Source: Nonlabens sp. (GTDB taxonomy: Bacteria; Bacteroidota; Bacteroidia; Flavobacteriales; Flavobacteriaceae). From it: DNA of 64,000 nucleotides. The stretch is from the NCBI GenBank assembly GCA_049671565.1, contig JBATVD010000039.1, forward strand, positions 12,329 to 76,328. The letters run 5' to 3'. Both the position numbers and the translations under genes were made by a program. A model generated the notes under the pieces. That model ran no database searches and was not told where the DNA came from. It saw only the letters and a program-made list of their open reading frames with translations. Of the stretch, positions 677-25,827 are shown one piece after another (position 1 is the stretch's first letter; the number at the start of each line of letters is the position of its first letter).

Positions 677-1450
677 CTATAATCGTTTGTTTAAGAATTT
701 GGAAGCCTTTTCATTTCTGTTTATCATATTGAACATTTTAAGTTTTGTAGGTAGAAAATTTATGCGCTCCAACTCTTTTGTAAATCTCTGATTTATGATT
801 TCATACAATTTCATGTCAATTTCATTTGTTTCTGTAATTGCCGAAATTAATTCTGGGCTTATCTCGCTCTGTTTGGATGTTTTATTTAAGCTCTTATAGA
901 ATATTTTATTCCAGTTATAGGTTTTGTGAAGTAAAATTAAGGATTCATCAAATCTTTCTTGAATTCCAACGAAATCAAAATGTTGATCAATGTTTTTCAA
1001 AGCTAGATCGAGCATTTTATCTTCGTTATGTGTGCCACTTAATTTTCTTGCCTGTCCATTTATGACATCAAAGTCCCTGATTTCAGTAATGCATTCAAGC
1101 AAAGTTCTATTTTGTACTGCGCTCAGCAGTCTATGTTCTTTTTGGCGTCGTATATAATTGTAAAATGATATGGTTCTTTCAATAGGATTACGGAGCATGG
1201 TTATGTACCTAAAATCTCTTTCAAAAATCTCGTGAATTCCGTAGTTGAAATGACCTTGAAGTAGATTGATTTTTGCAAGCTCTTCTTTCGGAGAGCTTTT
1301 TAATTCTTCCATGTTCCAAATACCAGATGAATTGTACCCCACCTGAAAAATATTTTCCTTATCATAATATTTGGAAAGTATGGACTTAAAAGTCGTTCCC
1401 GCATTTTTAGGGAGATGAAGAAATATTATATTTTTTTCAGACTTGGTCAT
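677..1450 (-). CDS. sulfotransferase family protein (PAPS-dependent, family-2-like)
   Basis: 257-aa ORF with a 5'-PSB-like motif (LHLPKNAGTTF) near the N-terminus and a 3'-PB-like motif (RNPIERTIS). Confidence 0.75.
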   Translation of the reverse strand: MTKSEKNIIFLHLPKNAGTTFKSILSKYYDKENIFQVGYNSSGIWNMEELKSSPKEELAKINLLQGHFNYGIHEIFERDFRYITMLRNPIERTISFYNYIRRQKEHRLLSAVQNRTLLECITEIRDFDVINGQARKLSGTHNEDKMLDLALKNIDQHFDFVGIQERFDESLILLHKTYNWNKIFYKSLNKTSKQSEISPELISAITETNEIDMKLYEIINQRFTKELERINFLPTKLKMFNMINRNEKASKFLNKRL

Positions 1451-1470: not shown

Positions 1471-2166
1471 TTATCGATCGTTCCTTACATCGCTCTCTAT
1501 AACCCCATCGCGTAATCGAATAACTCTATGGGCATGTTCTGCAATTTCTTCTTCGTGTGTTACTAGGATCACTGTATTGCCATCTGCATGAATTTTATCA
1601 AATAGAGTCATGATTTCTACTCCAGTCTTTGAGTCAAGATTCCCAGTAGGTTCATCAGCTAGTATGATGGAAGGGTTGTTTACCAATGCCCGACCTACCG
1701 CTACTCGCTGGCGCTGACCACCTGATAATTGATTGGGTTGGTGATCCATACGATCTGCAAGCCCCACACTCTCCAGTACTTCGGAAGCTCTCGCAACGCG
1801 ATCTTTTTTTGATTTGCCCGCATAGATCATGGGTAAAGCCACGTTATCCAATGCCGTGGTTCTAGGCAAAAGATTGAAGGTTTGAAATACAAAACCGATT
1901 TCGGTATTGCGTATATCGGCCAAGTTGTCATCGCTCAAGCTGGAAACATCAGTGCCATTGAGTCTATAACTACCCGCAGTAGGCGTGTCTAGGCAGCCTA
2001 GTAAATTCATAAAAGTGGATTTGCCGCTTCCCGATGGACCCATGAAAGCTACATAATCGCCGCGTTTAATATCCAAGTCTATTCCCTTGAGGACTTTTAC
2101 CGTTTCCTGACCTAACCTAAAATTACGCACGATACCGCGCACCTCGATAACATTTTCACTACTCAT
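1471..2166 (-). CDS. ABC transporter ATP-binding protein (LolD/MacB type), no adjacent permease
   Basis: Walker [10 protein letters not shown], signature LSGGQRQR, Walker [13 protein letters not shown]-loop VTHE. Confidence 0.85.
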
Positions 2167-2218
2167 GGTACTAAATTAATTGATCTCACTTTATTAGGAC
2201 GCTCGTTTGCAATTTAAG

Positions 2219-3010
2219 TTACAGGTAAATATGAAAGCATTGCTGTCTTTGCTCCTTGCGCAGAAACAAAAAACCCAAGTCATACGTATCGATAGAAGCG
2301 GTTACCTGGTCATTTCTTTTCAAGCATTCCCATGCTTCATTCATATCCCGCGACCAGTAAATATCATCCAGAATGAATACAGTCTCATTGTGCGCAAATG
2401 GCAAAAGCTGCTCAAAATAGGATAATGTAGCCTTACCGTCATGATGACCGTCTATATAGATAAGGTCATATTTACCCTCTGGTTTCAGGGAAGCTTTCCC
2501 CTCGAGGTAGTCTTGAAAAATACAGTTAGTAAGGTTTACATTTGAAATACTACACTGCTTCAAATTATTATGAGTGAAATCTGCCAATTGATGAGAACCC
2601 TCAATGGTAGTGATTTCCGCTTTGGGATTTGATAATGCAAAAGCTTGAGTCGCAATTCCCAAAGATGTGCCTAATTCCAAAATACGTTTTGCATTGAAAT
2701 AGCGAGCAACTCTAAAAAGGGTTTTAGCAGTTTTGAGGGAAGAACTATTATGCTTTAAAATTTTATTTATAGCTCGTTGGTCAGATTTAAAGACTCTACT
2801 TCCTGCACCATGGTCCTCAACGGTGAGTATGGTGTTGTTTTTTTTTAAGCTTTCGCGAAAGCGAGATAGTTTCAGATACTCTTCAAAATGATTACGATCT
2901 CTCAAGCATTTTTTTTCAAATTGAAAGACAAACGGCGAGTGAATACCGTGCAGGTGAAAGGACTTTGCGAGGTGTGAGAAGTAAGTTGATATTTGAAACT
3001 GTGCCTGCAT
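2219..3010 (-). CDS. class I SAM-dependent methyltransferase (O-methyltransferase-like)
   Basis: Motif I ILELGTSLGIATQ and DLIYIDGHHD, characteristic of Methyltransf_24-like proteins. The gene contains one palindrome copy (LSRFRESL). Confidence 0.7.
   Translation of the reverse strand: MQAQFQISTYFSHLAKSFHLHGIHSPFVFQFEKKCLRDRNHFEEYLKLSRFRESLKKNNTILTVEDHGAGSRVFKSDQRAINKILKHNSSSLKTAKTLFRVARYFNAKRILELGTSLGIATQAFALSNPKAEITTIEGSHQLADFTHNNLKQCSISNVNLTNCIFQDYLEGKASLKPEGKYDLIYIDGHHDGKATLSYFEQLLPFAHNETVFILDDIYWSRDMNEAWECLKRNDQVTASIDTYDLGFLFLRKEQRQQCFHIYL
2849..2862. repeat. iterated palindrome copy (14 bp GCTTTCGCGAAAGC) inside the methyltransferase CDS
   Basis: Read directly from the sequence; perfect self-complementarity. 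Confidence 0.95.
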
Positions 3011-3015
3011 GCGAG

Positions 3016-4896
3016 CTATCCCATTTTTTCACTGAACTCAAGCCATTCCATCTCGGTTTCTTCAAGATCTGCTTTCACTTTTTCCAGCTCTATGGAGTTT
3101 TCGGTCATTTGCTCTGGATCAATCCCAGGATCTAGAAAACTGTTTTGCAGCTTCTTTTTTTGCTCTTCCAGCTTTTTGATTTTGTTTTCCAGTCGGGAGA
3201 GGTTTTTCTGCTGCTCTCGGCTAGGTCCCGAGCTTGAGTCCTCCTTTTTAAGAGAAGGTTCTTTTGCTGTTGGGGTCTCTGTTTTCTTTGAAATATCCTT
3301 TTCTAGTGAAATGTCTGTTGATCCTACATAAGCTCTGAAATCGCTGTAATTGCCAGGGAAATCAGTAATATTTCCGGAGGTATTAAACACAAAGAGATGA
3401 TCTACGATCTTATCCATAAAATAACGATCGTGGCTCACTACAATAATACAACCGGGAAAATCCATCAAAAAGTTCTCCAGCACGTTGAGCGTGGGAATAT
3501 CCAGATCGTTAGTAGGTTCATCCAAAATCAGGAAGTTGGGATTTTGAATCAGTATCGTGCACAAATACAGTCTTTTGCGCTCACCACCACTAAGTTTCTC
3601 AACGAAATCATGTTTCTTTTTACTATCAAACATGAAACGTTCCAGTAGCTGGCTTGCGCTTATTATCTTTCCTTTAGTAAGAGGTATGTACTCTCCATAT
3701 TCCTTGATCACATCGATTACCTTCTGGCCAGGATTGATATTGATACCTTTTTGAGTGTAGTATCCTATTTTAACGGTCTCACCAGTCACGATCTTACCCG
3801 TATCAGGCGGTAGCATGCCTGTTAGAAGATTTAGGAAAGTGGATTTCCCAGTACCATTTTTACCAATGATGCCAACGCGCTCACCACGCAAAAAGTTATA
3901 GGAGAAGTTTTCAAAAAGAGTATTCTCGCCAAAGGATTTGCTGATTTTGTGCAGCTCCACAACCTTGGTACCCATGCGCTCCATATTGATCTCAAGCTCT
4001 ACTTTGTGATCCTTGCGTCTATTCATTGCCGCCTCCTTGATTTGATAAAAATCATCGATGCGAGATTTGGACTTTGTGGTGCGTGCCTTAGGCTGGCGAC
4101 GCATCCAATTCAGTTCTTTTTTATAAAGTTGTTGCGCTTTTTCTTGAGTGGTTTGCTCCAGTATAAGGCGTTCTTCTTTTTTCTCAACATAATAGGAGTA
4201 GTTTCCTTTGTATGAGTATAGCTGGCCGTTATCTAATTCTATAATTTCAGTGCATACGCGATCTAGAAAATACCGGTCGTGAGTGACCATGAGGATTGTG
4301 TAATCTTCTTGTTTAAAATAACTCTCCAGCCACTCTATCATTTCTAGATCGAGATGGTTGGTAGGTTCATCCATGATTAGAAGTTGTGGATCAGAAAGCA
4401 AAGCTATGGCCATTGCTACACGCTTTTTCTGGCCTCCACTCAAGGTTTTTATCTTGATCGAGAGGTCGTCCAGTCTCAGTTTGGTTAGGATCTGTTTGTA
4501 TTTAGTTTCAAAATCCCATGCATTTGCAGCATCCATGCGATCCAGCGCATCTTGCATCTCATCAGCATCGTCTGGATTTGCCATGGCTTTTTCATACTGA
4601 GTAATAAGCTTTAAGGTGGGGATGTCGCTGTCTAAAATTACCTCTTCCACCGTCAAATCAGGCGCAAGGTCAGGCTCTTGGCTCAAGTAAGCCATGCGCA
4701 GATCGTTGCGGTAACTTACTTTTCCATCATCAGGCTGTTCCTTACCAGTAATTATGTGGAGAAGGGAGGTTTTTCCTGAACCATTTTTGGCAACGAAGCC
4801 TATTTTTTGACCTTGATTAATACCAAGGGATATATTTTTGAAGAGATATTTTTCTGCAAAGCTTCGGGAAACATTTTCAACCGTTAGGTAGTTCAT
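3016..4896 (-). CDS. ABC-F family ATPase (two NBDs, charged coiled-coil C-terminus, Uup-like)
   Basis: Two Walker A motifs (AKNGSGKTS, GKNGTGKST), two signature motifs (LSGGQKKR, LSGGERKR), no TM domain, and a K/E-rich tail. Confidence 0.85.
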   Translation of the reverse strand: MNYLTVENVSRSFAEKYLFKNISLGINQGQKIGFVAKNGSGKTSLLHIITGKEQPDDGKVSYRNDLRMAYLSQEPDLAPDLTVEEVILDSDIPTLKLITQYEKAMANPDDADEMQDALDRMDAANAWDFETKYKQILTKLRLDDLSIKIKTLSGGQKKRVAMAIALLSDPQLLIMDEPTNHLDLEMIEWLESYFKQEDYTILMVTHDRYFLDRVCTEIIELDNGQLYSYKGNYSYYVEKKEERLILEQTTQEKAQQLYKKELNWMRRQPKARTTKSKSRIDDFYQIKEAAMNRRKDHKVELEINMERMGTKVVELHKISKSFGENTLFENFSYNFLRGERVGIIGKNGTGKSTFLNLLTGMLPPDTGKIVTGETVKIGYYTQKGININPGQKVIDVIKEYGEYIPLTKGKIISASQLLERFMFDSKKKHDFVEKLSGGERKRLYLCTILIQNPNFLILDEPTNDLDIPTLNVLENFLMDFPGCIIVVSHDRYFMDKIVDHLFVFNTSGNITDFPGNYSDFRAYVGSTDISLEKDISKKTETPTAKEPSLKKEDSSSGPSREQQKNLSRLENKIKKLEEQKKKLQNSFLDPGIDPEQMTENSIELEKVKADLEETEMEWLEFSEKMG

Positions 4897-5006
4897 ATTT
4901 TTAATGTAATAGATGCAAAAATAGAGGTTCTTTGTCCTTAAACGATCATTTGCGTGAACCTAAGCCCAAACTCTTGTAAAATTCTTTCTCAATGGATAGG
5001 AATGAT

Positions 5007-5014
5007 TAGTTTTG
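5007..5014 (+). promoter_or_regulatory. Bacteroidota-type -7 box (TAGTTTTG matches TAnnTTTG) upstream of cysQ
   Basis: The motif lies 17 nt upstream of the ATG at 5032, at the head of the plus-strand locus. I saw no convincing -33 TTTG. Confidence 0.4.
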
Positions 5015-5031
5015 CCATTTAAATTTCATTC

Positions 5032-5832
5032 ATGATATCAAATCTAGGAGAACTTGCAATCAAAGCATCTATTAAGGCGGGCGCTGCGATCATGGAAGTT
5101 TATAATAAAAATGAGGCAATAGTAGATAAAAAAGCGGATGACTCACCACTTACTCAAGCAGATCTCAATTCCAATGCGGTAATCATCGATTATCTCAAAA
5201 GTACCGACATTCCCGTAATTAGTGAAGAGATCAAAAATTCCGATTACTTAGCTCGAAAAGATTGGGAGAAGTGCTGGATCGTAGATCCAATGGATGGAAC
5301 CAAAGAATTTGTCAACCGCAATGGCGAATTCACCGTCAATATTGCCTTACTGGAGAATGGGAAACTGACTATGGGAGTGATTTACGCACCTGTGTTGAAG
5401 TCCCTCTATTTTACTAGTGAAGGTATGGCAGATGCTTTCAGAGCAACGGTAGATTGGGAAAAGGGAATGAGCGTCTCTGAGATTGTGAAAGAAGCTTCAG
5501 TTTTAAAGCAGCATTCAGATAAAAATTACCTCAAGGTAGTCGCTAGTAAATCTCACTTAAATCAAGAAACTAAAGATTACATTGATCAGCTGTCTAGAAG
5601 TGACGATCGAGAATTGCAAATTGTGTCTGTAGGTAGTTCGCTCAAATTTTGTTTGGTAGCAGAAGGAACTGCTGAGGTCTACCCTAGATTTGGTCCTACA
5701 ATGGAATGGGATACTGCGGCCGGACAAGCCATATGCGAGGCAGCAGGCGTTTCTGTAACTTCTTACAAAAATAATCTACCTTTGCAATATAATAAGGAGG
5801 ATTTATATAACCCATTTTTTATAGTCAATTAG
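5032..5832 (+). CDS. cysQ: 3'(2'),5'-bisphosphate nucleotidase (PAP phosphatase), inositol-monophosphatase fold
   Basis: Motifs ISEE, WIVDPMDGTKEF and WDTAAG are characteristic of the CysQ/IMPase family. The gene sits directly upstream of cysC/D/N. Confidence 0.8.
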   Translation: MISNLGELAIKASIKAGAAIMEVYNKNEAIVDKKADDSPLTQADLNSNAVIIDYLKSTDIPVISEEIKNSDYLARKDWEKCWIVDPMDGTKEFVNRNGEFTVNIALLENGKLTMGVIYAPVLKSLYFTSEGMADAFRATVDWEKGMSVSEIVKEASVLKQHSDKNYLKVVASKSHLNQETKDYIDQLSRSDDRELQIVSVGSSLKFCLVAEGTAEVYPRFGPTMEWDTAAGQAICEAAGVSVTSYKNNLPLQYNKEDLYNPFFIVN

Positions 5833-5834
5833 CA

Positions 5835-6083
5835 ATGGATGTTACAAGGAAAAGGCATATTGCCAAAACAATTACGTGGAGAGTAATTGCGAGCGTTACT
5901 ACTTTTGCATTGGCTTTTATCTTCTTCCAAGAAGATCCAGATGCAATCACTAAAGCTTCGGGTGTAGCTATAGCAGAGTCGATTATTAAAATGGTACTTT
6001 ATTATTATCATGAACGTTTCTGGTATAAGTCAAATTTTGGTATTGAGGGCGAAAGAACAACTGAGGATGAAGGGAAAAAATAA
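5835..6083 (+). CDS. DUF2061-like small membrane protein
   Basis: 82 aa with two predicted helices. The KTITWRV...YYYHERFW pattern matches my memory of the DUF2061 signature. Confidence 0.6.
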   Translation: MDVTRKRHIAKTITWRVIASVTTFALAFIFFQEDPDAITKASGVAIAESIIKMVLYYYHERFWYKSNFGIEGERTTEDEGKK

Positions 6084-6669
6084 TATTTTCGCCACAGATT
6101 ATACAACTGAACAGCAACTTCGCATTCAAGTAAAAAAACAGAAACCTGTTCTTTTGTGGTTTACTGGACTTTCAGGGTCTGGAAAATCTACCTTAGCTCA
6201 AGCAGTTGAGAAAGATCTGCTCCGTGAGGGTTACCATACGTTTGTTTTAGACGGAGATAATGTGAGAATGGGTTTAAATAAAGGTCTCGGTTTTTCAGAA
6301 GAAGATCGGTCTGAAAACCTTAGACGAATAGGTGAGGTAAGTAAACTAATGCTTGAAGCTGGTTTGATAGTTATAGGTACTTTTGTTTCACCATTATTAC
6401 ATCAGAGGGAAAAGGTAAGAGAAATAGTGGGAGCGTCTCGCTTTCGCGAAATTTTTATTAATACTCCCCTCGAAGAGTGCGAAAAAAGGGACGTTAAAGG
6501 ATTGTATAAGAAAGCTAGAGCTGGGGAGATTCCTAATTTCACTGGTGTTGATGCTAAATATGAGATGCCTTTGAATCCAGATATAGAGGTTTTTACCACG
6601 GGAAAATCTGTTGAAGATACATCAAAAGAATTAAAAAATAAATTAATACCGTTTATAAACAATGGATAA
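6010..6669 (+). CDS. cysC: adenylyl-sulfate (APS) kinase; true start probably the ATG at 6067
   Basis: P-loop WFTGLSGSGKSTLA, then LDGDNVR and KGLYKKARAGEIPNFTGVD. The 6067 start (MKGKNNIF) overlaps the DUF2061 stop by 17 nt. Confidence 0.9.
   Translation: MNVSGISQILVLRAKEQLRMKGKNNIFATDYTTEQQLRIQVKKQKPVLLWFTGLSGSGKSTLAQAVEKDLLREGYHTFVLDGDNVRMGLNKGLGFSEEDRSENLRRIGEVSKLMLEAGLIVIGTFVSPLLHQREKVREIVGASRFREIFINTPLEECEKRDVKGLYKKARAGEIPNFTGVDAKYEMPLNPDIEVFTTGKSVEDTSKELKNKLIPFINNG
6439..6451. repeat. partial palindrome copy (CGCTTTCGCGAAA) inside cysC
   Basis: The left arm and centre of the iterated palindrome are present, and the right arm is replaced by TTT. It encodes SRFRE. Confidence 0.6.
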
Positions 6670-7567
6670 GTATTATTTAGATTATCTAAGCGAATTAGAA
6701 TCAGAGGCTATATATGTTATCAGGGAGGTGTGGGCTCAGTTCAACAAGCCTGTAATTCTTTTTAGTGGAGGGAAGGATAGCATCTTGGTGACACATTTGG
6801 CTAAAAAAGCATTTTATCCGGCAAAAATACCATTTGCCTTAATGCATGTAGACACAGGTCATAATTTTCCCGAGACCATTGCTTTTAGAAATGACATTGC
6901 AGAAAAACTCGATGTAGAATTAATTGTTGCAAAAGTCCAAGATTCTATTGATAAAGGACGCGTTGCAGAAGAAAAAGGCAAAAATGCAACCCGAAATGCT
7001 TTGCAGATAACTACTCTTTTGGATGCTATTGAAGAAAATAAGATAGATTGTGCTCTAGGAGGTGCGAGACGAGACGAGGAGAAAGCACGAGCAAAAGAAA
7101 GATTTTTTTCACATAGAGATGATTTTGGTCAGTGGGATCCAAAAAATCAGCGTCCGGAATTATGGAATATTCTTAATGGAAATCATTTTGAGGGTGAACA
7201 TTTTAGAGCTTTTCCTATTAGTAATTGGACTGAGTTAGACGTCTGGAATTACATTCATAGAGAAAACATAGAGGTGCCGAGCCTATATCTAGCACATGAA
7301 CGTAAAATGGTTTGGAGAAATGATACGTGGTTACCTTATTCTGAATATTTACAAGATGTAAAGGAAGAAGATATTGTCACAAAAAAAGTTAGGTTTAGGA
7401 CTTTAGGAGATATCACCATAACAGGAGCCATAGAATCAGACTGTGATACTACCGAAAAAATTGCCCTTGAGGTGGCGTCAATGAAGATGACAGAAAGAGG
7501 AAACCGCAGTGATGATAAAAGATCAGAATCTGCAATGGAGGATAGAAAAAAACAAGGATATTTTTAG
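6662..7567 (+). CDS. cysD: sulfate adenylyltransferase subunit 2
   Basis: PAPS-reductase-fold PP motif FSGGKDS. The conserved C-terminus is GDITITGAIES...ERGNRSDDK...MEDRKKQGYF. Confidence 0.9.
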   Translation: MDKYYLDYLSELESEAIYVIREVWAQFNKPVILFSGGKDSILVTHLAKKAFYPAKIPFALMHVDTGHNFPETIAFRNDIAEKLDVELIVAKVQDSIDKGRVAEEKGKNATRNALQITTLLDAIEENKIDCALGGARRDEEKARAKERFFSHRDDFGQWDPKNQRPELWNILNGNHFEGEHFRAFPISNWTELDVWNYIHRENIEVPSLYLAHERKMVWRNDTWLPYSEYLQDVKEEDIVTKKVRFRTLGDITITGAIESDCDTTEKIALEVASMKMTERGNRSDDKRSESAMEDRKKQGYF

Positions 7568-7576
7568 GAAAACAAC

Positions 7577-8833
7577 ATGAATTTAGATAAAAATCAATTA
7601 TTACGCTTTACTACTGCTGGTAGTGTTGATGATGGAAAAAGTACTTTAATTGGAAGGTTATTATACGACTCTAAATCGATCTTTGAAGATCAAATAGATT
7701 CCATTAAGAACACAAGTTCTCAAAAAGGTCTTGAAGATATAGACCTTGCATTATTTACGGATGGTCTGAGAGATGAGCGGGAGCAAGGAATTACTATCGA
7801 TGTTGCTTATAGATACTTTACTACTCCAAAACGTAAATTTATTATTGCGGATACACCTGGGCATATTCAGTACACTAGAAACATGGTTACTGGTGCCTCT
7901 ACTGCAAATGCTGCCCTGATACTAATTGACGCAAGACATGGAGTCATTGAGCAAACTAAGCGCCACGCATTTATTGCAAGTCTATTGAATATACCACACA
8001 TAATTGTTTGTATCAATAAGATGGACTTAGTTGATTTTAGCGAAAGTGTTTATGAACAGATTATCCAAGATTTCAATGATTTTGCTTCTAAAATGCTAAC
8101 GCGTGACGTAGCTTTTATCCCCCTAAGTGCCTTACTTGGTGATAACGTGGTTAATAGAAGTGAAAATATGCCGTGGTATCAAGCGGCTCCGTTGCTCTAT
8201 ACACTGGAGCACCTTCATATAAGTAGCGATATCAATAAGATTGATGTACGCTTCCCTATTCAAACAGTTTTGAGGCCACAACGCAAAGGGTTTGAAGACT
8301 ATCGTGGATACGCAGGGAGACTCGGTAGCGGAGTGCTTAGAGTGGGCGATGCAGTTACAGCTCTTCCGTCTGGATTCACATCTAGAGTTAAGTCAATAAA
8401 TTCAGGTGATAAAGAAGTTCAAGAAGCATTTGCACCGATGTCAATAGCAGTAACGCTGGAAGATGATATCGATATCAGCAGGGGTGGTATGATAGTACGA
8501 ACTAACAATATGCCAGAGTCCAAGCAACAATTTGATGTTATGATATGCTGGCTTAACGAGAAACCATCTCAAATAAGAAAAAAATATAAAATCATTCATG
8601 CTAGCAACGAGCAGATCTCTATGATTGCTGATTGTGTTTACAAAATTGATATTGAAACCTTGAAACGAGATAGCAATGTGGTTGAGTTTAAAATGAATGA
8701 AATTGGTAGAGTAAGTCTTAAAACCAATAAGTCAATGATGATAGATAGCTATCGAGATAATAAGTTGACTGGAAGTTTAATACTCATAGATCCTGATACA
8801 AATGAGACTGTAGCCGCTGGTATGATAGTCTAA
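7577..8833 (+). CDS. cysN: sulfate adenylyltransferase subunit 1 (GTPase), no fused APS-kinase domain
   Basis: GTPase motifs GSVDDGKST, DTPGH and NKMD. At 418 aa it stops before any CysC-like domain. Confidence 0.9.
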   Translation: MNLDKNQLLRFTTAGSVDDGKSTLIGRLLYDSKSIFEDQIDSIKNTSSQKGLEDIDLALFTDGLRDEREQGITIDVAYRYFTTPKRKFIIADTPGHIQYTRNMVTGASTANAALILIDARHGVIEQTKRHAFIASLLNIPHIIVCINKMDLVDFSESVYEQIIQDFNDFASKMLTRDVAFIPLSALLGDNVVNRSENMPWYQAAPLLYTLEHLHISSDINKIDVRFPIQTVLRPQRKGFEDYRGYAGRLGSGVLRVGDAVTALPSGFTSRVKSINSGDKEVQEAFAPMSIAVTLEDDIDISRGGMIVRTNNMPESKQQFDVMICWLNEKPSQIRKKYKIIHASNEQISMIADCVYKIDIETLKRDSNVVEFKMNEIGRVSLKTNKSMMIDSYRDNKLTGSLILIDPDTNETVAAGMIV

Positions 8834-8860: not shown

Positions 8861-8868
8861 TATATTTG
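8861..8868 (+). promoter_or_regulatory. -7 box (TATATTTG) upstream of the wza-like gene
   Basis: Matches TAnnTTTG and lies 17 nt upstream of the ATG at 8885. Confidence 0.4.
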
Positions 8869-8878
8869 CAAGCTTAAT

Positions 8879-9700
8879 TTGATTATGAAAAATTTTTTTG
8901 CTCTCGTAATTCTGGCGCTGTTTGTAACTTCTTGTATACCTACTTCTCGCATTACTTATCTGCAAGATAAAGAAGAGTTTCCAAAAGATTCTCTACTTAC
9001 AATTCAGAGAGTACAGAGTCCTTACAGGCTGCAAGTAGGGGATATAATAGCAATAAACATTAAGGCCCCATTTGATAGCAATTTCGTTAGTGAGTTTCAA
9101 ATTGGTTCAGCTAGAGGAGGAGGAGGTAACGCTCAGCAGGTTTTACAAGGGGGCTTATATTTTACTGGTTTTACCATTAGTAATCGTGGTACCATCAGGG
9201 TGCCTCAATTAGGTGAAATATCTGTGGTTAGTAAAACTTTGGAAGAAGTGCGTTTACAAATTGAGGCTTTATTGTTTAAAACAAATTTTAAACAAACTTC
9301 TGATATTTTTGTAGACGTAAAGCTTGAGGGTTTACGATATACTATGGTTGGTGAAGTAAATAGTCCAGGTCAATACACTATTTTGAGAGACCAAGTAAGT
9401 ATCGTCGAAGCCGTGGCAGACGGTGGTGGAGTACCAGTGACCGGAGATCTTACTTCGGTGAAAATCATACGGCAATATGAGGGTGGGATCAAAACTCATA
9501 TACTTGATCTAACATCAATTGAGGTCATAAAATCCCCTTACTATTACTTGAGACCCAATGATATGATCGTTTTTAGTCCGCTCCCTCAAAAAGCTTTGGG
9601 TGTAGGGACTACTGGACTATCCACATTTACAACGGCCATCTCCATTTTTACTACAATTATCACTACTTATTTATTAATTGACAATTTATCTAATCGATAA
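8879..9700 (+). CDS. wza: polysaccharide export outer-membrane lipoprotein (OPX, Wza-like); likely start ATG 8885
   Basis: Signal peptide with lipobox (LFVTSC). A Poly_export-like segment (YRLQVGDIIAINI) is followed by an SLBB-like segment (GEVNSPGQY). Confidence 0.8.
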   Translation: MIMKNFFALVILALFVTSCIPTSRITYLQDKEEFPKDSLLTIQRVQSPYRLQVGDIIAINIKAPFDSNFVSEFQIGSARGGGGNAQQVLQGGLYFTGFTISNRGTIRVPQLGEISVVSKTLEEVRLQIEALLFKTNFKQTSDIFVDVKLEGLRYTMVGEVNSPGQYTILRDQVSIVEAVADGGGVPVTGDLTSVKIIRQYEGGIKTHILDLTSIEVIKSPYYYLRPNDMIVFSPLPQKALGVGTTGLSTFTTAISIFTTIITTYLLIDNLSNR

Positions 9701-12164
9701 GATGCAGGACGAGGATATTAATTCATTATCTGGGATTTTTGACATACGTCAATTTTTATCTAAAGTAATAAAGCTTTGGTGGCTTTTTATTTTAGTATTT
9801 GCCATTTGTTTCTCAATAGCCTATTACCAAAACCAATTTATCCAGACCTATTATGAGGTCGAATCATTGATCACAGTTACTGATAATTCAAGCCCTGGCC
9901 TTTCAGACAATACCAGCTTGACTTTTAATTGGGGAGGGACAACAGACAAAGTAACTACCGCAATAACTAAATATAAGTCCAGATCGCATAACGAACTTGT
10001 GGTAGATGAATTACAGATATATGTAGATTATTTGAAAAAAGGGGAATATTTTGATATTGACGCTTATAATAAAACTCCTTTTAAAATTCATGTGGATACT
10101 TCAAAAGCCCAGTTAAAAGGTGTTCCGATCCAATTTAACGTGCTTGATGAAAACCGTGTTAGGATAAGTGTTGACTTTCAAAAAAACAGTGCGAGTGGAT
10201 TTAATTATTCCACAAAGGAATCAGTGAGATTAAAAACTCCGATGGGACTTTTTTCTGATGTCTACAATTTTGGAGACAAGGTTGAGACTCCTTTTATGGC
10301 ATTTGAGATCAAACGCGTGCCTGAGCAGTTTAGAAAAGGGACTTGGGATGTTTACTTCAAAGACTACTGGTCTACAGTTAAAAATTATAAAGGAATATCT
10401 TTAGAGCAAACACCATCTGGTTCATCAATATTGACACTTACGCTTACAGGGACCAACAAACTCAAGTTGATTGATTACTTGAATGCAAGCTCTTCAGTTC
10501 TAGAAAAAGCAGAGCTTCTTAGGAAAAATTTATATGCGAACAGTCAAATCAGGTATATTGATAGCGTACTTAATGCTGATCTTCCAAAACTGGAGCAAGC
10601 AGAGAAAGCCTTAGAAGATTTTCAGTCTGAAAATGGAATTGTAGATGCATCTGCACAAATGTCCCAATTAAATAGCGAGCTATCAGTTCTAGAGTTAGAA
10701 GAGAAGCAGATTGAACGATCTAAAAAATATTACTATTCCCTCGAGGAGTTTTTGGAGAATAATACAGATTATACAAAAATTCAAGTACCTTCTGTAGTTG
10801 GGATAAATGAATCAAACATTGAACAATATGTAAGTCAGATCATCGAGAAGTCTCGAGAAAGAAATGTCAAACAATATTCTGTCAAAGAGAATACGTTTGA
10901 AATGGCTCGTTTAGATAGAGATATCGAAAGTTTGAGAAGACTGATCTTAGCAAACATTACGAGCTCCACAGAACTTCTCAATCAGGATTTGATTAGTAAT
11001 TTAGAAGAGCAAACTGAGGTAAAGCAGGAAATTAAAACACTTCCAGAGGAGCAGCAAGTGTTTTTAAGAATACAAAGAAACTTTGAGACTAGAAAATCGG
11101 AATTCAACAATTTGCTTAGAAGAAGATCCCAGGCGGAACTAGCTAAAGCATCAAATGTTTCGGACATTTATGTAATAGATAAAGCAAAAGATACTAACCA
11201 ATCAGGAAGGTCAAAAGATTCGACAGTTAACTATTTGTTGGCGCTTCTATTAGGATTGACAATTCCAACATTAGTGGCTTTTCTTCTTACATTATTTGAT
11301 AATTATATATATACTCCAAAACAAATAGAACGACTAACTACTATTCCCGTGCTTGGAGTTGTAGGAAAAGTAGATCACCCCAATAATCTAATCGTATACG
11401 AAAAGTCGAAATCTGCAGCCGCTGAAGCTTTTAGAGGATTAAGGTCGAGCCTTCACTTTATGTATGACCAAGATTCTCAAACCAATTCTAGGACTATCAT
11501 GGTTACGAGTAGTGTGAGTGGTGAAGGGAAAACTTTTTCCAGTATAAATCTAGCGTCTGTGTTTGCTTTAAGTGGTAAGAAAACAGTACTAGTAGGTTTA
11601 GATTTGAGAAAGCCAAAAATATTTGATGATTTTGATATTACAAATGACGTAGGTGTTTCTAATTACTTGGTGAAGGATTGTACCCTGCAGCAAATGACTA
11701 AGACAACTAAGATCAACAATCTTGATGTGATCCTATCTGGACCAGTTCCTCCTAATCCGAGTGAATTAATTTTGTCCGCTAAGATGAAGGAATTGATGAC
11801 GATTTTAAAGCAGGAGTACGATTATGTGATTTTGGATACGCCTCCTCTAGGACTGGTAGCAGATTCTATAGAATTAGCTAAGTATGCTGATGTGACACTT
11901 TATATGGTTAGACAAAAGTATACTAAAAAGATGATGCTTGATATTATCAACGAGAAGTATGCAAGAAAAGAGATAGATCGTGTCAGTATTTTATTCAATT
12001 ATTATAAGGATACAAAAGGTTACGGCTATGGTTATGGCTATGGTTACGGCTATGGTTATGGTTATGGCTATGGAGTCTATTCCAATGGGTATCATGAGCA
12101 AGACAGAGCTAGGGGCTTCAAATATGTTGTGAAAAAAATCCTAAAGCGTCTAATAAAAAAATAG
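9678..12164 (+). CDS. wzc: chain-length determinant / BY-tyrosine kinase (PCP-2a, Wzc-like); likely start ATG 9702
   Basis: N-terminal TM helix plus a long coiled-coil periplasmic region and a second TM helix. The cytoplasmic domain has Walker A SSVSGEGKTF, Walker B ILDTPP and a C-terminal Tyr cluster (GY)9. Confidence 0.85.
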   Translation: MTIYLIDKMQDEDINSLSGIFDIRQFLSKVIKLWWLFILVFAICFSIAYYQNQFIQTYYEVESLITVTDNSSPGLSDNTSLTFNWGGTTDKVTTAITKYKSRSHNELVVDELQIYVDYLKKGEYFDIDAYNKTPFKIHVDTSKAQLKGVPIQFNVLDENRVRISVDFQKNSASGFNYSTKESVRLKTPMGLFSDVYNFGDKVETPFMAFEIKRVPEQFRKGTWDVYFKDYWSTVKNYKGISLEQTPSGSSILTLTLTGTNKLKLIDYLNASSSVLEKAELLRKNLYANSQIRYIDSVLNADLPKLEQAEKALEDFQSENGIVDASAQMSQLNSELSVLELEEKQIERSKKYYYSLEEFLENNTDYTKIQVPSVVGINESNIEQYVSQIIEKSRERNVKQYSVKENTFEMARLDRDIESLRRLILANITSSTELLNQDLISNLEEQTEVKQEIKTLPEEQQVFLRIQRNFETRKSEFNNLLRRRSQAELAKASNVSDIYVIDKAKDTNQSGRSKDSTVNYLLALLLGLTIPTLVAFLLTLFDNYIYTPKQIERLTTIPVLGVVGKVDHPNNLIVYEKSKSAAAEAFRGLRSSLHFMYDQDSQTNSRTIMVTSSVSGEGKTFSSINLASVFALSGKKTVLVGLDLRKPKIFDDFDITNDVGVSNYLVKDCTLQQMTKTTKINNLDVILSGPVPPNPSELILSAKMKELMTILKQEYDYVILDTPPLGLVADSIELAKYADVTLYMVRQKYTKKMMLDIINEKYARKEIDRVSILFNYYKDTKGYGYGYGYGYGYGYGYGYGVYSNGYHEQDRARGFKYVVKKILKRLIKK
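12018..12074 (+). repeat. in-frame hexanucleotide repeat (GGYTAYGGYTAT-type) encoding (Gly-Tyr)x9 at the Wzc C-terminus
   Basis: Codons read directly: ggt tac ggc tat ggt tat ... gga. Confidence 0.95.
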
Positions 12165-16311: not shown

Positions 16312-17385
16312 ATGATTAATGTAACGCAAACCTTCTTGCCTGACCAAAATGAATTTCAAGCTATTTTGAAAACCGCTTGGGATAATAAATGGTTGACCAA
16401 TCGAGGACAATTGGTAAAGGAGTTGGAATATAAGTTAATCAATTTTTTAGGGGTCAACAATTTGACTTTAACTACAAATGGAACCTTGCCTATTCAAATA
16501 GCTATTAAGTCTATGGGGCTTGAGGGTGAGATTATAACCACCCCTTTTTCTTACGTAGCCACAACATCAAGCGTTGTATGGGAGAATTGCACTCCCGTAT
16601 TTGTGGATATTGATGAAGATTTTTTTACGATTGACGAAAATAAAATAGCATCTGCAATAACCTCTAAGACTTCAGCGATTTTAGCAACCCATGTTTTTGG
16701 AAATCCTTGTAATATAGAGGCTATTGAAAAAATTGCACACAAACACAATATCAAGGTGATTTATGATGCTGCGCATTGCTTTGGTGTGAAGTACAAGGGG
16801 CAATCCATTTTCAATTATGGCGATGTTAGTACATGTAGTTTTCATGCCACTAAAATTTTTCATACTGGGGAAGGCGGGTGCTGGATCACTAATAATGATG
16901 AGTTGCAAAAGAGTCTATTTTTTCATCATAATTTCGGTCATGATGGTCCAGTTGACTTTTATGATGTGGGAATAAATGCGAAGATGAGTGAGTTACAGGC
17001 AGCCATGGGACTTGCCGTTTTTAAACATTTAGATGAAATTTTTCAGGCAAGGGAAAAAGTAGTTGATTCTTACAAAAAATTTCTAGCTGGCACCTCTTTG
17101 AAAATGATCAAGCTACGTCCAGGGACAGATTGGAACTTTCATTACTTTCCAGTTGTTTTTGAGTCAGAATCCCAATTGTTGAGAGTCAAACAGGTCTTGA
17201 ATGACCATGCTATCAATCCACGCAGGTACTTCTATCCGAGTTTAAATACTTTGAAATATGTAAGCTATCAAAAAATGCCTGTTTCTGAAAAAATCGCCTC
17301 AACCATTTTATGTCTTCCAAATTATGTAGGACTGGCTGGAAAAGATTTAAAACGGATAACTGATTTAATTAAAATGTCTTTATGA
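16312..17385 (+). CDS. DegT/DnrJ/EryC1/StrS-family PLP-dependent sugar aminotransferase
   Basis: The motif SFHATKIFHTGEGG carries the PLP-lysine. The N-terminus (FLPDQNEF...) is typical of the family. Confidence 0.8.
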   Translation: MINVTQTFLPDQNEFQAILKTAWDNKWLTNRGQLVKELEYKLINFLGVNNLTLTTNGTLPIQIAIKSMGLEGEIITTPFSYVATTSSVVWENCTPVFVDIDEDFFTIDENKIASAITSKTSAILATHVFGNPCNIEAIEKIAHKHNIKVIYDAAHCFGVKYKGQSIFNYGDVSTCSFHATKIFHTGEGGCWITNNDELQKSLFFHHNFGHDGPVDFYDVGINAKMSELQAAMGLAVFKHLDEIFQAREKVVDSYKKFLAGTSLKMIKLRPGTDWNFHYFPVVFESESQLLRVKQVLNDHAINPRRYFYPSLNTLKYVSYQKMPVSEKIASTILCLPNYVGLAGKDLKRITDLIKMSL

Positions 17386-18011
17386 TCTTCTCAAATAAAA
17401 AGCCAAAGGTTTTTTGCATAGGTTTTAATAAAACGGGTACCACTACCATAAAATATACTTTAGAGGAGCATAACTATAAAATGAATGTTCAGAGTAAAGC
17501 ATCGGTTTTTTTGAAAGATTGGAAGACTCGAAATTTTAAACCATTAATCAAATATTGCGAAAAATATGAAGCGTTTCAAGACTTTCCTTTTTCATTCCCA
17601 TATACATACATTGCTTTAGACCTGGCCTTTCCAAACAGCAAATTTATTTTGACGGTACGAGACACTCCAGAAGTTTGGTATAAGTCAATAACTACCTTCC
17701 ACGGTAAGTTATGGGCAAATGGAAAAACGCCCTCAAAGGAAGATTTGATGAATGCAGTTAGACACTATAAAGGAAGGCCTTGGGAAGTTAATAGATCAAT
17801 ATTCAAAACTCCAGAGAGTGATCCTTATAATGAAGAAATCCTTAAGGAACAATATGTAGATCATATAAAGTCTGTGAAAGAGTATTTCAGGTTTAGGCCA
17901 GATGATTTTTTAGTAATAAATGTCTCTAAGAATGATGATTATCGTAAAATGTGTGATTTTTTGAAGGTTAAACCAAAATTTGAGAAATTTCCTTGGAAAA
18001 ACAAAACTTGA
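17382..18011 (+). CDS. sulfotransferase family protein
   Basis: 5'-PSB-like GFNKTGTTT and 3'-PB-like RDTPEVWYKS. A 4-nt ATGA overlap links it to the upstream gene. Confidence 0.7.
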   Translation: MIFSNKKPKVFCIGFNKTGTTTIKYTLEEHNYKMNVQSKASVFLKDWKTRNFKPLIKYCEKYEAFQDFPFSFPYTYIALDLAFPNSKFILTVRDTPEVWYKSITTFHGKLWANGKTPSKEDLMNAVRHYKGRPWEVNRSIFKTPESDPYNEEILKEQYVDHIKSVKEYFRFRPDDFLVINVSKNDDYRKMCDFLKVKPKFEKFPWKNKT

Positions 18012-18017
18012 ATTGTC

Positions 18018-19190
18018 ATGAAGACTAAAAAGACTATAAAAATTGGTAATGAGAAAAAACTTTCATTCGGCTTTCATGCGTACAGAGTAAATGAAAAGAC
18101 AAAAGTTGTAAAGGATGAAGAGTCATTCCTTCCTAAACAAGACAATGATGGCGTACTTAATAAGTTTATTCATATAGGATATCCAAAAAGTGGCTCAACG
18201 GTTCTTCAAAATGGTTTTTTTGGCAAACACCCTGAAATACTTAACCTAGGTTGTGGAAATAGGAGTGATCAAACTTACTGGGATGATCTTGGATATATTT
18301 CTAGAGAAATCAACATCGCCATGGAGGTGGATTTGAGATACCGCAATTCCATCAGTTACAATGCAAAAAAGGTGAGGTCTAATTTTGAGAGCTATTTTGA
18401 ACAAGCAAAAAATTCAAACATCATTCGTACCGTAGGTATTTCTAACGAGAATTATAGTTTCCAATGGAACTACGGAATCGATATTGAAGAAAAAGCAAAG
18501 AGGTTAAAGGGTATTTTTGGTAGAGACACTAAAATTTTAGTTGTGTTGAGAGAGCAGATCGACTTGATAGCATCTTTATACAAAGAGCAAATAAGATTTG
18601 GTTATTCGGGCTCTATCAATGATTTTTTTAATTACCTATGGGATTATCAAGACAGGAGTGCCCTTCATGAATTTTGTTTTGACAAAGTAATTGATGTATA
18701 CGCGAGCTATTTCGGTAAGGAAAATATACATATTGTGCCCTTTGAATCCTTTAAAAAAGACAATGAAGTTTTTCTTAACAATATTGCTCGTGTGCTGGAT
18801 GTGGAAACAGATCTAATTACCAAAATTGAGACAATCTACAACCGCCAGCTCAGTGATCAGGCATTGGAGGTCAAAAAAATGATGAATGAACGATATAGTC
18901 ATTCTTTCGGTAATGGTTTTTACCAGGTGTTTGATAATCATAGGTACGTTCCCTATTTTACTGAAGAGTTAGGTAAGGAAGTTCCCCTTGAAGTTCACTT
19001 GGATTATCAGGTAAGACACCATTTGGTCAAGGCGGCAGAGAAAATAGCATCTTTGTCCAATGTGGAAAAAATTGATTTGAACATAGATAGCAACAATTTA
19101 AAACGCTTTTCTAAACTATTTAGTGAATCCAATAATAAGTTGGAAAAAGCTTATAAGCTAGATTTGAAACAATATAAATATTTATCGTGA
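18018..19190 (+). CDS. sulfotransferase domain protein
   Basis: 5'-PSB-like GYPKSGSTV and 3'-PB-like LREQIDLIAS. Confidence 0.65.
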   Translation: MKTKKTIKIGNEKKLSFGFHAYRVNEKTKVVKDEESFLPKQDNDGVLNKFIHIGYPKSGSTVLQNGFFGKHPEILNLGCGNRSDQTYWDDLGYISREINIAMEVDLRYRNSISYNAKKVRSNFESYFEQAKNSNIIRTVGISNENYSFQWNYGIDIEEKAKRLKGIFGRDTKILVVLREQIDLIASLYKEQIRFGYSGSINDFFNYLWDYQDRSALHEFCFDKVIDVYASYFGKENIHIVPFESFKKDNEVFLNNIARVLDVETDLITKIETIYNRQLSDQALEVKKMMNERYSHSFGNGFYQVFDNHRYVPYFTEELGKEVPLEVHLDYQVRHHLVKAAEKIASLSNVEKIDLNIDSNNLKRFSKLFSESNNKLEKAYKLDLKQYKYLS

Positions 19191-23899: not shown

Positions 23900-24790
23900 A
23901 TGATCATGAATGGTGACCGCATTTATATATTGATTCTCAACTACAACTCCTCTCAAGAGGTGATCAGGTTATACAATTCATTGAAAGTTGATTCCAGGGA
24001 AGAATACGTTTTTTTGATCATAGATAATTTGTCACCCCAGCCAGACCGGGAGCAATTAAAAAAAGCTATTCCTGATGAATGCCTTCTTTTGTTAAATACA
24101 AACGATGGCTACGCCTCGGGAAATAATGCTGGTATAAAACAAGCTATGAATAATGGGGCAACCCACATTTTAATATTAAATCCAGATATTGAAATAGCTG
24201 CAACAATCATTCATGATTTATATATACGCTTCAAATCGCTTGAAAAAACAGCTGCCCTAGGAACCAGGATATGTGATTCAGAAAACCCTGATATAATTTA
24301 TTCTGACGGTGGGATCATAAATAAAGAAAAAGGTTTTTCTACAAAACATCATAATGGCAAAAAGCTAACAAGTGAGGTTTCTGAGACTGGGTTACGAGAG
24401 GTAGATTATGTAAATGGGAGCGTCCTATTTACAAGTGTGGCAGTACTGCAGGATGTAGGACTCTTAGAGGAGTCTTTCTTTATGTATTTTGAGGAGACCG
24501 AGTGGTGTTTGAGAGCAAAGGAAAAGGGCTACAAATTGCTGGTAGATACAGATTTAACGGCCTACCACAAGCCGAGTTCAAAAAATACCCGTTATCAATT
24601 TTTAATGATTAGAAATAGGCTCTGGCTTGCCAAAAAATATCCAAAGTATTACCCAAAAGCAAAAAAAGTAGTTTTCCGTAAACTTAAGAAGGAGTCAATG
24701 AAAAAGCTAAAACGATTCCAACTACCCGGAAAAAATACCAGAGCAAAAATTAAAGGCTACCTGTATGGAGTCTATACCTCGCAGTCATGA
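23900..24790 (+). CDS. glycosyltransferase family 2 (rhamnosyltransferase-like subgroup)
   Basis: Motifs ILILNYNSS, IIDNLS and NDGYASGNN, with FMYFEETEWCLRA in the C-terminal half. Confidence 0.75.
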   Translation: MIMNGDRIYILILNYNSSQEVIRLYNSLKVDSREEYVFLIIDNLSPQPDREQLKKAIPDECLLLLNTNDGYASGNNAGIKQAMNNGATHILILNPDIEIAATIIHDLYIRFKSLEKTAALGTRICDSENPDIIYSDGGIINKEKGFSTKHHNGKKLTSEVSETGLREVDYVNGSVLFTSVAVLQDVGLLEESFFMYFEETEWCLRAKEKGYKLLVDTDLTAYHKPSSKNTRYQFLMIRNRLWLAKKYPKYYPKAKKVVFRKLKKESMKKLKRFQLPGKNTRAKIKGYLYGVYTSQS

Positions 24791-25827
24791 TCAAAGATGT
24801 ATTAATTCCCGCAGCGGCATCTGACAATAGTTTTTTTGAGGAAATTATAAATAATTCTCAATCTACACGATATCATTTCGGCTCCTTGGAGTCTGATATT
24901 TCAAAATTTAATGCTGTACTGATTCATTGGCCAGAGCAGTTGTTTGAATGGCAAGAACCTACAAATACTCAATTGGAGCAATTGGCTAGCGTATTGGGAA
25001 ATTGGTCATCGCGAGTACCTATTGTTCATGTAGTCCATAATCTGGCTCCTCATATCGGAACTAGTATTAAGTTCAGAAACCTGTATGAGCTGGTGTATAC
25101 AAATGCCACTACTATAATTCATTTAGGTACTTATAGTAAAAATCTTATGGAGGTGAAATATCCAGCCGCTGAGCATGTTGTCATAGAGCATCCTCTTTAT
25201 TCCAGTACCATGAGGGTTCGAGATAAATTTGAGGCGAGGAAACTTCTGGAGATTGATGAGGAACAATTCGTAGTTATAGTTCCGGGCACAGTCAGAAGCA
25301 TAGAAGAGAGAAAGATTATATTGAACTCTTTCAATGCTATAAATTGTAAGAATAAATTACTAATAGCCCCTAGAATGCTTTTTAAGCGTTTGAAGCCATT
25401 TTCAGGGTACTATAAAATAAAAAAGCTCTTTCCTATAGATCGTGTGTACGATTACTTTGCGAACAAACGATATGTGGGGAGTTATAGATTTAATAGTCGT
25501 TTTATAGACAGCGATAGCTTGTCTCAATTAATGTCTGCTTCTGATGTTGTATTAGTACCGAGATTTAATAATTTGAATTCTGGAATTATCTATTTAGGTT
25601 TGACGTTTTGTAAATTGATAGTAGGTCCGGATAACGGAAATAATTCTGAACTCTTGGAACGACATGATATGTTAAGTTACAATGTGGAAAAGCCAATTGA
25701 AGTGGCTCAAAAATTAAATCAAGCCTATAAACAGCATCGTGACTTTAGCTTAACTGATGGTGAGATAGATTATCTAAGACCCGAAAACATCGCTCTGAAA
25801 TGGGATCGTCTTTTTAGCAAGGTTTGA
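24787..25827 (+). CDS. hypothetical protein, possibly a GT-B-fold glycosyltransferase
   Basis: 346-aa ORF with a 4-nt overlap onto the upstream gene. The C-terminal half (VVLVPRFNNLNSGIIYLGLTFCKLIVGP) only loosely resembles a GT1/GT4 donor-binding domain, and I recognise no firm motif. Confidence 0.35.
   Translation: MIKDVLIPAAASDNSFFEEIINNSQSTRYHFGSLESDISKFNAVLIHWPEQLFEWQEPTNTQLEQLASVLGNWSSRVPIVHVVHNLAPHIGTSIKFRNLYELVYTNATTIIHLGTYSKNLMEVKYPAAEHVVIEHPLYSSTMRVRDKFEARKLLEIDEEQFVVIVPGTVRSIEERKIILNSFNAINCKNKLLIAPRMLFKRLKPFSGYYKIKKLFPIDRVYDYFANKRYVGSYRFNSRFIDSDSLSQLMSASDVVLVPRFNNLNSGIIYLGLTFCKLIVGPDNGNNSELLERHDMLSYNVEKPIEVAQKLNQAYKQHRDFSLTDGEIDYLRPENIALKWDRLFSKV

Follow-up and report, generated by a model that had tools for sequence, protein, structure and literature searches.

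Why should a bacterium keep its genes for sulfate activation at the head of a polysaccharide locus, and what is a small protein of the DUF2061 family (PF09834) doing among them? These questions are raised by a set of five close-set genes, cysQ, DUF2061, cysC, cysD and cysN, on the + strand at 5032-8833 of a 64,000-nucleotide (nt) stretch of DNA from Nonlabens sp. (Flavobacteriaceae; assembly GCA_049671565.1, contig JBATVD010000039.1), the whole of which is referred to here as the window. The overall best explanation, to which we assign a probability of roughly 0.6, is that these genes form an operon that supplies 3'-phosphoadenosine 5'-phosphosulfate (PAPS) and recycles 3'-phosphoadenosine 5'-phosphate (PAP) for glycan sulfation, with DUF2061 as a fifth, docking component. 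The case for it comes from the sulfur metabolism genes of the whole genome and from the gene neighborhoods, co-occurrence and natural fusions of DUF2061 in other genomes.

Gene content of the module and sulfur metabolism of the genome

Families were assigned from profile matches judged against curated family cut-offs, and all five genes of the module scored above their cut-off:

5032..5832, + strand: cysQ, 3'(2'),5'-bisphosphate nucleotidase (PAP phosphatase); TIGR01331 264.6 bits (cut-off 228.8), PF00459
5835..6083, + strand: DUF2061 protein of 82 residues; PF09834 56.3 bits (gathering score 23.1)
6067..6669, + strand: cysC, adenosine 5'-phosphosulfate (APS) kinase; probable start ATG 6067, longest open reading frame (ORF) from 6010; NF003013 263.8 bits, PF01583 215.8 bits
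6662..7567, + strand: cysD, sulfate adenylyltransferase small subunit; TIGR02039 402.6 bits (cut-off 396.6)
7577..8833, + strand: cysN, sulfate adenylyltransferase GTPase subunit; TIGR02034 538 bits (cut-off 336.1)

The CysQ match was that of a full-length equivalog, with residues 9-265 aligned to positions 5-248 of the 250 in TIGR01331, and the match of DUF2061 to the 52-position PF09834 domain spanned residues 9-63. CysC was also full-length, scored above the cut-offs of NF003013 (163) and TIGR00455 (239.9 bits against 138.7), and contained the P-loop GLSGSGKST. CysN has 418 residues and no fused kinase. The intergenic distances along the module are +2 (cysQ/DUF2061), -17, -8 and +9 nt, the last separating the two subunits of the CysD/CysN heterodimer. 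An earlier note on this DNA, made from the sequence alone, had described these five genes as contiguous and directly 5' of wza, and their placement was confirmed throughout. It had also described DUF2061 as lying between cysQ and cysC and overlapping the cysC start; the position and the existence of the overlap stand, and its size needs revision. An overlap of 74 nt was rejected as a product of choosing the longest ORF, because the APS kinase models first align at residue 23 of that ORF and the second ATG, at 6067 (MKGKNN...), fits them. Judged from these alignments, the overlap is most likely 17 nt.

Based on the family assignments and established biochemistry, CysDN adenylylates sulfate to give APS, and CysC phosphorylates APS to PAPS. 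The sulfotransferases of the locus then consume PAPS, while CysQ removes the inhibitory by-product PAP.

Profile searches of the genome assembly (3.70 Mb in 47 contigs, scored 100% complete) found a single copy each of CysD, APS kinase and DUF2061, all within the window. No CysH (APS/PAPS reductase) was identified genome-wide, as the matches to PF01507 (PAPS_reduct) were CysD, DndC and TilS only, and there was no genome-wide match to the sulfite reductase family NIR_SIR (PF01077). The genome thus lacks the combination of CysH and CysI/Sir that defines assimilatory sulfate reduction, and the earlier observation that no cysH or cysI/J is in the window proved true of the entire genome. With no recognizable route from APS or PAPS to sulfide, the sole sulfate-activation genes can feed sulfotransferases only. 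Five of the six sulfotransferase genes of the genome sit in the window, the only one outside it being a Sulfotransfer_4 gene (91.7 bits) on contig C16 (G000:C16:165037-165783, minus strand). In addition, the window CysD is 81% identical to the CysD of a PAPS operon in another genus (genome G134) and 61% identical to the assimilatory CysD of the same genome, which indicates that its lineage is that of PAPS operons and that it is no assimilatory gene left stranded.

A PAPS-only configuration (cysC without sulfite reductase) was found in 35 of 77 cysC-bearing Flavobacteriaceae genomes and is therefore common in the family. Related modules adjoin sulfotransferase, Wzx, Wzy and GT4 genes and are embedded in glycan loci in many genera. 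The module's only outlet in this genome would be sulfation of the surface polysaccharide encoded downstream. Together, these data bear out the suggestion that this copy of the pathway is dedicated to glycan sulfation, and we consider a PAPS-only role in sulfation very likely. The earlier note had looked to a second cysDN/cysH set elsewhere in the genome for this conclusion. There is no second set, nor any additional housekeeping assimilatory set of the kind found in rhizobia, the cysD and cysC being the only ones, yet the dedication stands: it rests on the absence of a reduction pathway and not on duplication.

We also considered whether the module is instead a general entry to sulfate assimilation, with PAPS passing to an unrecognized reductase and the position beside wza incidental. 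The genome has no other cysDN/cysC set, and in some relatives with a single cysDN (e.g., G131) a separate sir operon probably draws on the PAPS operon as well. Against such a role stand the absence of any PAPS/APS reductase or sulfite reductase from an assembly with a full completeness score, the lineage of CysD, the co-location of all but one of the sulfotransferases, and the embedding of the same module in glycan loci across many genera. We regard it as very improbable.

Two other features of sulfur metabolism were observed. The DndC homologue (G000:C12:180645-181190; L002 799-2127, minus strand; TIGR03183, 428 bits) indicates that the genome has a dnd DNA phosphorothioation system. A sister species of the same genus (G014; L098 3145-8527) has the opposite arrangement, consisting of Rrf2, DUF2061, a cysH-like gene, cysD and cysN together with a Pyr_redox_2 oxidoreductase; searches of that genome found neither an APS kinase nor a NIR_SIR match.

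DUF2061 and its association with sulfate activation

The neighborhoods of DUF2061 genes were studied with a profile made from 18 single-domain relatives, and 80 loci were fetched from species-representative genomes. At 52 of the 58 single-domain Bacteroidota loci, cysQ, cysC, cysD or cysN lies within 150 nt on the same strand, and at two more within 6 kb. At least six gene orders occur among the linked loci: cysQ-DUF-cysC-cysD-cysN; DUF-cysC-cysD-cysN-cysQ; cysD-cysN-DUF-cysC-cysQ; cysC-cysD-cysN divergent from DUF-cysQ; DUF-cysQ alone; and DUF-cysD-cysN-cysC. These are spread over Flavobacteriaceae, Crocinitomicaceae, Parvicellaceae, Cyclobacteriaceae and Ekhidna. In all of the linked loci except two, in which it lies before cysD (L089) or ~4.7 kb from cysQ (L068), DUF2061 is immediately 5' of cysC or cysQ. 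That the linkage survives this much rearrangement argues for selection on it.

The association was also seen across 151 Flavobacteriaceae genera, each represented by a single genome. A DUF2061 match lies directly 5' of the APS kinase gene, on the same strand, in 59 of the 77 genomes with cysC. Most of these 59 are tandem two-domain proteins of ~145 residues, and a restriction of the cys linkage to the single-domain subtype of the window was thereby ruled out. Both DUF2061 and CysD are present in 117 genomes, DUF2061 only in none, CysD only in five and neither in 29 (117/122 CysD genomes against 0/29 CysD-less genomes); as these counts come from Flavobacteriaceae only and related genomes are not independent, they describe a pattern and not a probability, and a Fisher p-value overstates their independence. 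The conserved linkage and co-occurrence with cys genes that the earlier note had proposed to look for in other genomes was thus found, and its guilt-by-association argument is strongly supported.

DUF2061 is not limited to PAPS operons. A second paralog, single-domain with ~85-95 residues and 31% identical to the window DUF2061, lies 5' of a gene for a ~700-residue sulfite reductase, on the same strand and typically 3.3 kb away, in 57 of 80 genomes. In G134 the assimilatory operon (L091, G134:C11:1006500-1017500, 1484-8709) consists of genes for an Rrf2/CymR-like regulator, DUF2061, cysH, cysD, cysN, sir, cobA and siroheme synthase, with neither cysC nor cysQ. This paralog rules out a PAPS-specific DUF2061. 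The earlier proposal of a role in "sulfate/PAPS handling" at the membrane is therefore better put as sulfate handling, since PAPS handling is too narrow to accommodate the assimilatory form. In a tree of the domain, which has few columns and low resolution, the window DUF2061 falls in a Bacteroidota clade (support 97/96) with cysC/cysQ-linked single and tandem forms, and the assimilatory paralog and the rhizobial forms lie outside that clade.

The association extends to other phyla and to covalent fusions. Symbiosis plasmids of Mesorhizobium carry, after nodBCIJ, a DUF2061 gene with 44% identity to that of the window, placed between the Nod-factor sulfotransferase gene (nodH) and cysD/cysN (nodP/nodQ). 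Gemmatirosa (Gemmatimonadota) has cysQ followed by DUF2061, cysC and cysD and, ~3 kb downstream, a sulfotransferase gene; its DUF2061 and APS kinase are read in a single uninterrupted frame, giving DUF2061::CysC. A 273-residue DUF2061::CysC (APS kinase) protein (P0171) was also found, and the Flavobacteriaceae genome G068 encodes a 342-residue DUF2061x2::CysC followed by cysQ. The opposite polarity occurs on two Microvirga plasmids, in which CysN::DUF2061 proteins of 538 and 529 residues are encoded in a cysH-cysD-cysN operon, and in the ESM Atlas 69 Pseudomonadota proteins form a cluster in which DUF2061 is joined to the C-terminal domain of CysN. Based on these neighborhoods, co-occurrences and fusions, DUF2061 is highly likely to be a functional partner of sulfate activation.

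The AlphaFold2 (AF2) model of the window DUF2061 has helices at residues 3-31 and 37-65 (mean predicted local distance difference test, pLDDT, 67), joined by a short acidic turn, QEDPDA. A tandem relative was modeled as four helices of 28-31 residues forming two hairpins (pLDDT 84; predicted template modeling score, pTM, 0.67). Kyte-Doolittle values over 15 residues were 1.89 for helix 1 and 1.33 for helix 2. Five residues of the N-terminal flank are basic and one is acidic; the C-terminal flank, HERFWYK, is likewise basic and the turn acidic, a charge bias of the positive-inside kind. Pfam describes the family as a predicted membrane protein, and from these features DUF2061 is predicted to form a hairpin of two helices in the inner membrane, its N- and C-termini both cytoplasmic. 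Such a topology matches both fusion polarities, because CysN, joined at the N-terminus, and CysC, joined at the C-terminus, are both cytoplasmic. Ten residues are invariant across the single forms and both halves of the tandem forms (R7, H8, K11, W15, R16, E48, K52, H59, E60 and W63, in window numbering), and all of them except E48 and K52 lie at the cytoplasmic helix ends. A fold search of the PDB with the tandem model, a plain helical bundle, gave no match at E <= 0.001. Because many relatives are tandem duplications, DUF2061 probably acts as a dimer.

Some loci recovered in the survey have features of their own. In the divergent arrangement of a Parvicellaceae chromosome (OZ253949; L058 2641-5908), the ~3.5-kb gap holds genes for a DeoC/LacD-type aldolase and two aldehyde dehydrogenases, possibly a linked sulfo-sugar or sulfonate pathway; the same divergent layout occurs at L040, L085, L036, L062 and L059, the gap genes having been annotated in L058 only. 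At L095 (G131:C5, 3700-5340), a 546-residue ORF with RmlD (dTDP-4-dehydrorhamnose reductase) and CysQ-type Inositol_P domains lies directly 5' of DUF2061-cysC-cysD-cysN and may be either a real RmlD::CysQ fusion or read-through of two genes. In G019 (L093) the DUF2061 gene is between those for O-succinylhomoserine sulfhydrylase and sir. A NusG-like (UpxY-type) gene lies ~350 nt 5' of the fusion and cysQ of G068 (L097, G068:C29, 1281-1754), as it does atop Bacteroidota capsule operons. On an Ekhidna chromosome (L081 2648-10581), a tandem DUF2061 without cys linkage is located between a CheW/methyl-accepting chemotaxis protein pair and a 1073-residue ATP-binding cassette (ABC) fusion protein. 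A match in the uncultured phage MW202753 (L105 5001-5201; 30% identity, E 2e-4) was not used as evidence, as its neighbors are lysis genes and the 10 kb examined contains no cys gene. Its DUF2061-like frame lies just past holin and peptidase genes, and the record annotates minus-strand hypothetical genes across it.

The polysaccharide locus and comparable systems

The PAPS module heads a polysaccharide locus of ~48 kb, with the following features:

677..1450, - strand: sulfotransferase of the Sulfotransfer_2 / Gal-3-O-sulfotransferase type, in the divergent flanking operon; PF06990 53.8 bits, PF03567 46.9 bits
5007..5014, + strand: Bacteroidota-type -7 promoter box TAGTTTTG, 17 nt before the cysQ start in a 135-nt divergent intergenic region; motif scan, consensus match only
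8861..8868, + strand: second -7-type box TATATTTG, within the 45-nt gap between cysN and wza; motif scan
8879-9700, + strand: Wza-like outer-membrane polysaccharide export (OPX) gene, starting 45 nt past cysN; PF02563/SLBB
9678-12164, + strand: Wzc-like tyrosine autokinase gene; TIGR01007, GNVR, Wzz
17382-18011, + strand: sulfotransferase, Sulfotransfer_4 (Pfam), adjoining the next; both are 3' of a DegT aminotransferase gene
18018-19190, + strand: sulfotransferase, Sulfotransfer_1/3 (Pfam)
43197-44054, + strand: sulfotransferase, Sulfotransfer_3/1 (Pfam)
44363-45166, + strand: sulfotransferase, Sulfotransfer_3/1 (Pfam)

Beyond Wzc lie genes for Wzm and two Wzt proteins and ~40 kb of genes for glycosyltransferases, sugar-modifying enzymes and MBOAT acyltransferases. 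The window therefore has sulfate activation and APS kinase genes beside at least five Pfam-supported sulfotransferases and the glycan export genes of both Wza/Wzc and Wzm/Wzt. A further ORF at 38806-39675 (+; 289 residues) matched Sulfotransfer_3 below threshold (E 8.7e-4, 20 bits) and, judged by this match, may be a sixth, divergent sulfotransferase of the locus. The ORFs at 24787-25827, 33216-34265 and 42321-43196 had no family match. The four SulP (PF00916) loci of the genome are all on other contigs. The earlier remark that the window has no sulfate permease can thus be extended to the whole contig for SulP; the CysPUWA, CysZ, PiT and SLC13 families were not searched for.

Promoters were sought with the Bacteroidota motif TAnnTTTG; a sigma-70 scan was uninformative (31 sites against 25 expected), that consensus being wrong for Bacteroidota. 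No terminator-like site was found between cysN and wza, and box TATATTTG might serve wza/wzc as an internal promoter. On the plus strand, the PAPS operon contains a single terminator-like hairpin, inside cysC at 6427-6447 (+; GTGGGAGCG...CGCTTTCGC, then a T-rich tail).

Glycan loci with an attached PAPS module have been described before, those of nodPQ/nodH and the Cobetia capsule among them, and the window operon is an ordinary, well-supported example of this arrangement. Within the same phylum, Bacteroides thetaiotaomicron, which lacks assimilatory sulfite reduction, has cysQ, cysC, cysD, cysN, a polytopic anion transporter gene and a sulfotransferase gene at BT0411-BT0416, the product of which is a sulfated steroid and not a glycan. 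In control searches this species, like the window genome, had CysD and APS kinase but no NIR_SIR; unlike the window, it had no DUF2061. Rhizobial nodPQ duplicate a housekeeping cysDN/cysC set. The genome of the window, unlike those of rhizobia, has no other cysDN/cysC set and no reduction pathway. The Mesorhizobium nod locus (plasmid CP050295) resembles the window in placing sulfate adenylyltransferase and APS kinase genes beside a glycan sulfotransferase and an exporter (nodIJ), not beside sulfate reduction, and in containing a DUF2061 gene. It differs in that NodQ is a CysN-CysC fusion (646 residues), whereas cysN and cysC are separate in the window, and in that the stretch examined has no cysQ. 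A preprint on this locus lists "a gene of unknown function (DUF2061)".

The Flavobacteriaceae assimilatory operon of G134 shares with the window a DUF2061 gene directly 5' of the first enzyme gene and packed with cysDN. It differs in its DUF2061 paralog (31%), its CysD lineage (61%) and its lack of cysC and cysQ, and its product is sulfide for cysteine, in contrast to the PAPS for sulfation made by the window module. In another phylum, the capsule cluster of Cobetia marina KMM 1449 has cysN/cysC, cysD, cysQ and a sulfate permease gene beside ABC-type export genes and sulfotransferases, and the polysaccharide was shown chemically to be sulfated (PMC11766843). That region carries a conventional permease, and DUF2061 is unmentioned in the paper, whereas the window has DUF2061 and, by the SulP search, no permease. 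The window locus also pairs Wza/Wzc with Wzm/Wzt.

Possible roles of DUF2061

Based on its presence in both kinds of operon, the function of DUF2061 would sit at the sulfate-activation step common to the PAPS and assimilatory routes. We propose that a DUF2061 dimer serves as a membrane dock for ATP sulfurylase and APS kinase on the cytoplasmic side, which would couple activation to the site of sulfate entry and of glycan assembly and export. This specific mechanism is tentative, and we would put it at somewhat short of even odds.

Several observations weigh against a glycan-sulfation operon with DUF2061 as its docking component. A pure tether would have to recognize differing enzymes according to context, in CysN, CysC and CysH operons, and a substrate-level role, such as sulfate entry, fits these varied contexts at least as well. 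Insertion into the membrane is itself a prediction: at 15-17 residues the hydrophobic cores are short, and helix 2, which carries the invariant E48 and K52 one helical turn apart, is only weakly hydrophobic. The Ekhidna and Cyclobacteriaceae tandems are mostly without cys linkage (20 of 22), and this Ekhidna-type tandem subfamily seems to have left the sulfate context. Copies in Bradyrhizobium, Microbulbifer and the haloarchaeon Halobellus show no cys neighbors, as does that of Chondrinema, and in Caulobacter and Shewanella the family has appeared in tables of iron-responsive, Fur- or SsoR-associated genes. In control searches E. coli, B. thetaiotaomicron and C. glutamicum had CysD without DUF2061, which indicates that DUF2061 is dispensable for the chemistry of CysDN and an accessory in some lineages. 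Finally, the second -7 box before wza may give the export genes a transcript separate from that of the PAPS genes.

The substrate-level alternative can be stated more fully. DUF2061 itself would be a sulfate-entry element, a minimal oligomeric transporter or channel with two transmembrane (TM) helices (or four in the tandem form) that passes sulfate to ATP sulfurylase; it might be proton-coupled through the invariant membrane-embedded Glu/Lys pair, and the fusions would then be a transporter-enzyme metabolon. Sulfate is the only element common to the cysH-cysDN-sir, cysQ/cysC/cysDN and nodH-nodPQ contexts, DUF2061 is the only membrane protein that recurs within these modules, and helix 2 contains the unvarying E48 and K52. 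Only one of the 80 loci has a SulP gene nearby, the other polytopic neighbors being glycan machinery (Wzx, Wzy, GT4 or MBOAT), and the window module has DUF2061 where that of Cobetia carries a permease. SulP does not track CysD in the Flavobacteriaceae sample (35/122 against 7/29, at an E-value cut-off of 1e-100 that picked one SulP subfamily only) as DUF2061 does. Set against this, the protein is very small, with four helices per dimer, and no transporter structure was matched in the fold search. The membrane potential would work against a passive pore for anions, so that coupling has to be assumed. The SulP-family genes of the genome could import sulfate, the four other permease families named above were outside the survey, and rhizobia have housekeeping sulfate uptake yet retain DUF2061 in the nod locus. 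On balance we think a sulfate-entry element rather unlikely. Doubtful, too, is the related conclusion that DUF2061 is a previously unrecognized minimal sulfate-uptake or hand-over protein, built as a 2-TM hairpin that is oligomerized or tandem-duplicated and that would let sulfate through the inner membrane and pass it straight to ATP sulfurylase; hand-over of sulfate would explain why it travels with, and fuses to, CysN and CysC in Bacteroidota, Alphaproteobacteria and Gemmatimonadota.

A regulatory or sensory role, in which a small membrane protein tunes the activity or expression of CysDN/CysC to sulfate, PAP/PAPS or metal, would agree with DUF2061 being usually the first gene of its unit and, in the assimilatory operon, directly after the Rrf2/CymR-type regulator. 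The conserved His, Arg, Lys, Glu and Trp residues clustered at the cytoplasmic helix ends and the family members in the Caulobacter and Shewanella tables of iron-responsive, Fur- or SsoR-associated genes also point in this direction. We nevertheless consider this role improbable. Three lineages have the protein covalently joined to a catalytic enzyme, as would be expected of a subunit more than of a regulator; it has no domain for binding DNA or nucleotides; and the co-occurrence is with the enzyme CysD, whichever regulator is present. Docking of the activation enzymes by DUF2061, within an operon for glycan sulfation, thus remains the explanation that we favor.

In the parts of the literature accessible to our search, no paper assigning a function to DUF2061 was found, the mentions being in gene tables, lists or loci. 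What is new in this locus is DUF2061: its near-perfect co-occurrence with CysD, its position kept through rearrangements and its presence in both PAPS and assimilatory operons, to which natural fusions of three kinds, with CysN or CysC as the partner and spread over three phyla, are added. On these comparative grounds it is a strong candidate for a membrane-level part that has been missing from the picture of bacterial sulfate activation. Its role could be tested directly in the nod loci of Mesorhizobium or in flavobacteria that are genetically tractable. For the organism itself, our reading is that it activates sulfate solely to decorate its surface polysaccharide. More widely, the DUF2061 hypothesis bears on the ways in which marine bacteria take up sulfate and build sulfated glycans, and it may also concern the sulfation modules encoded by phages.

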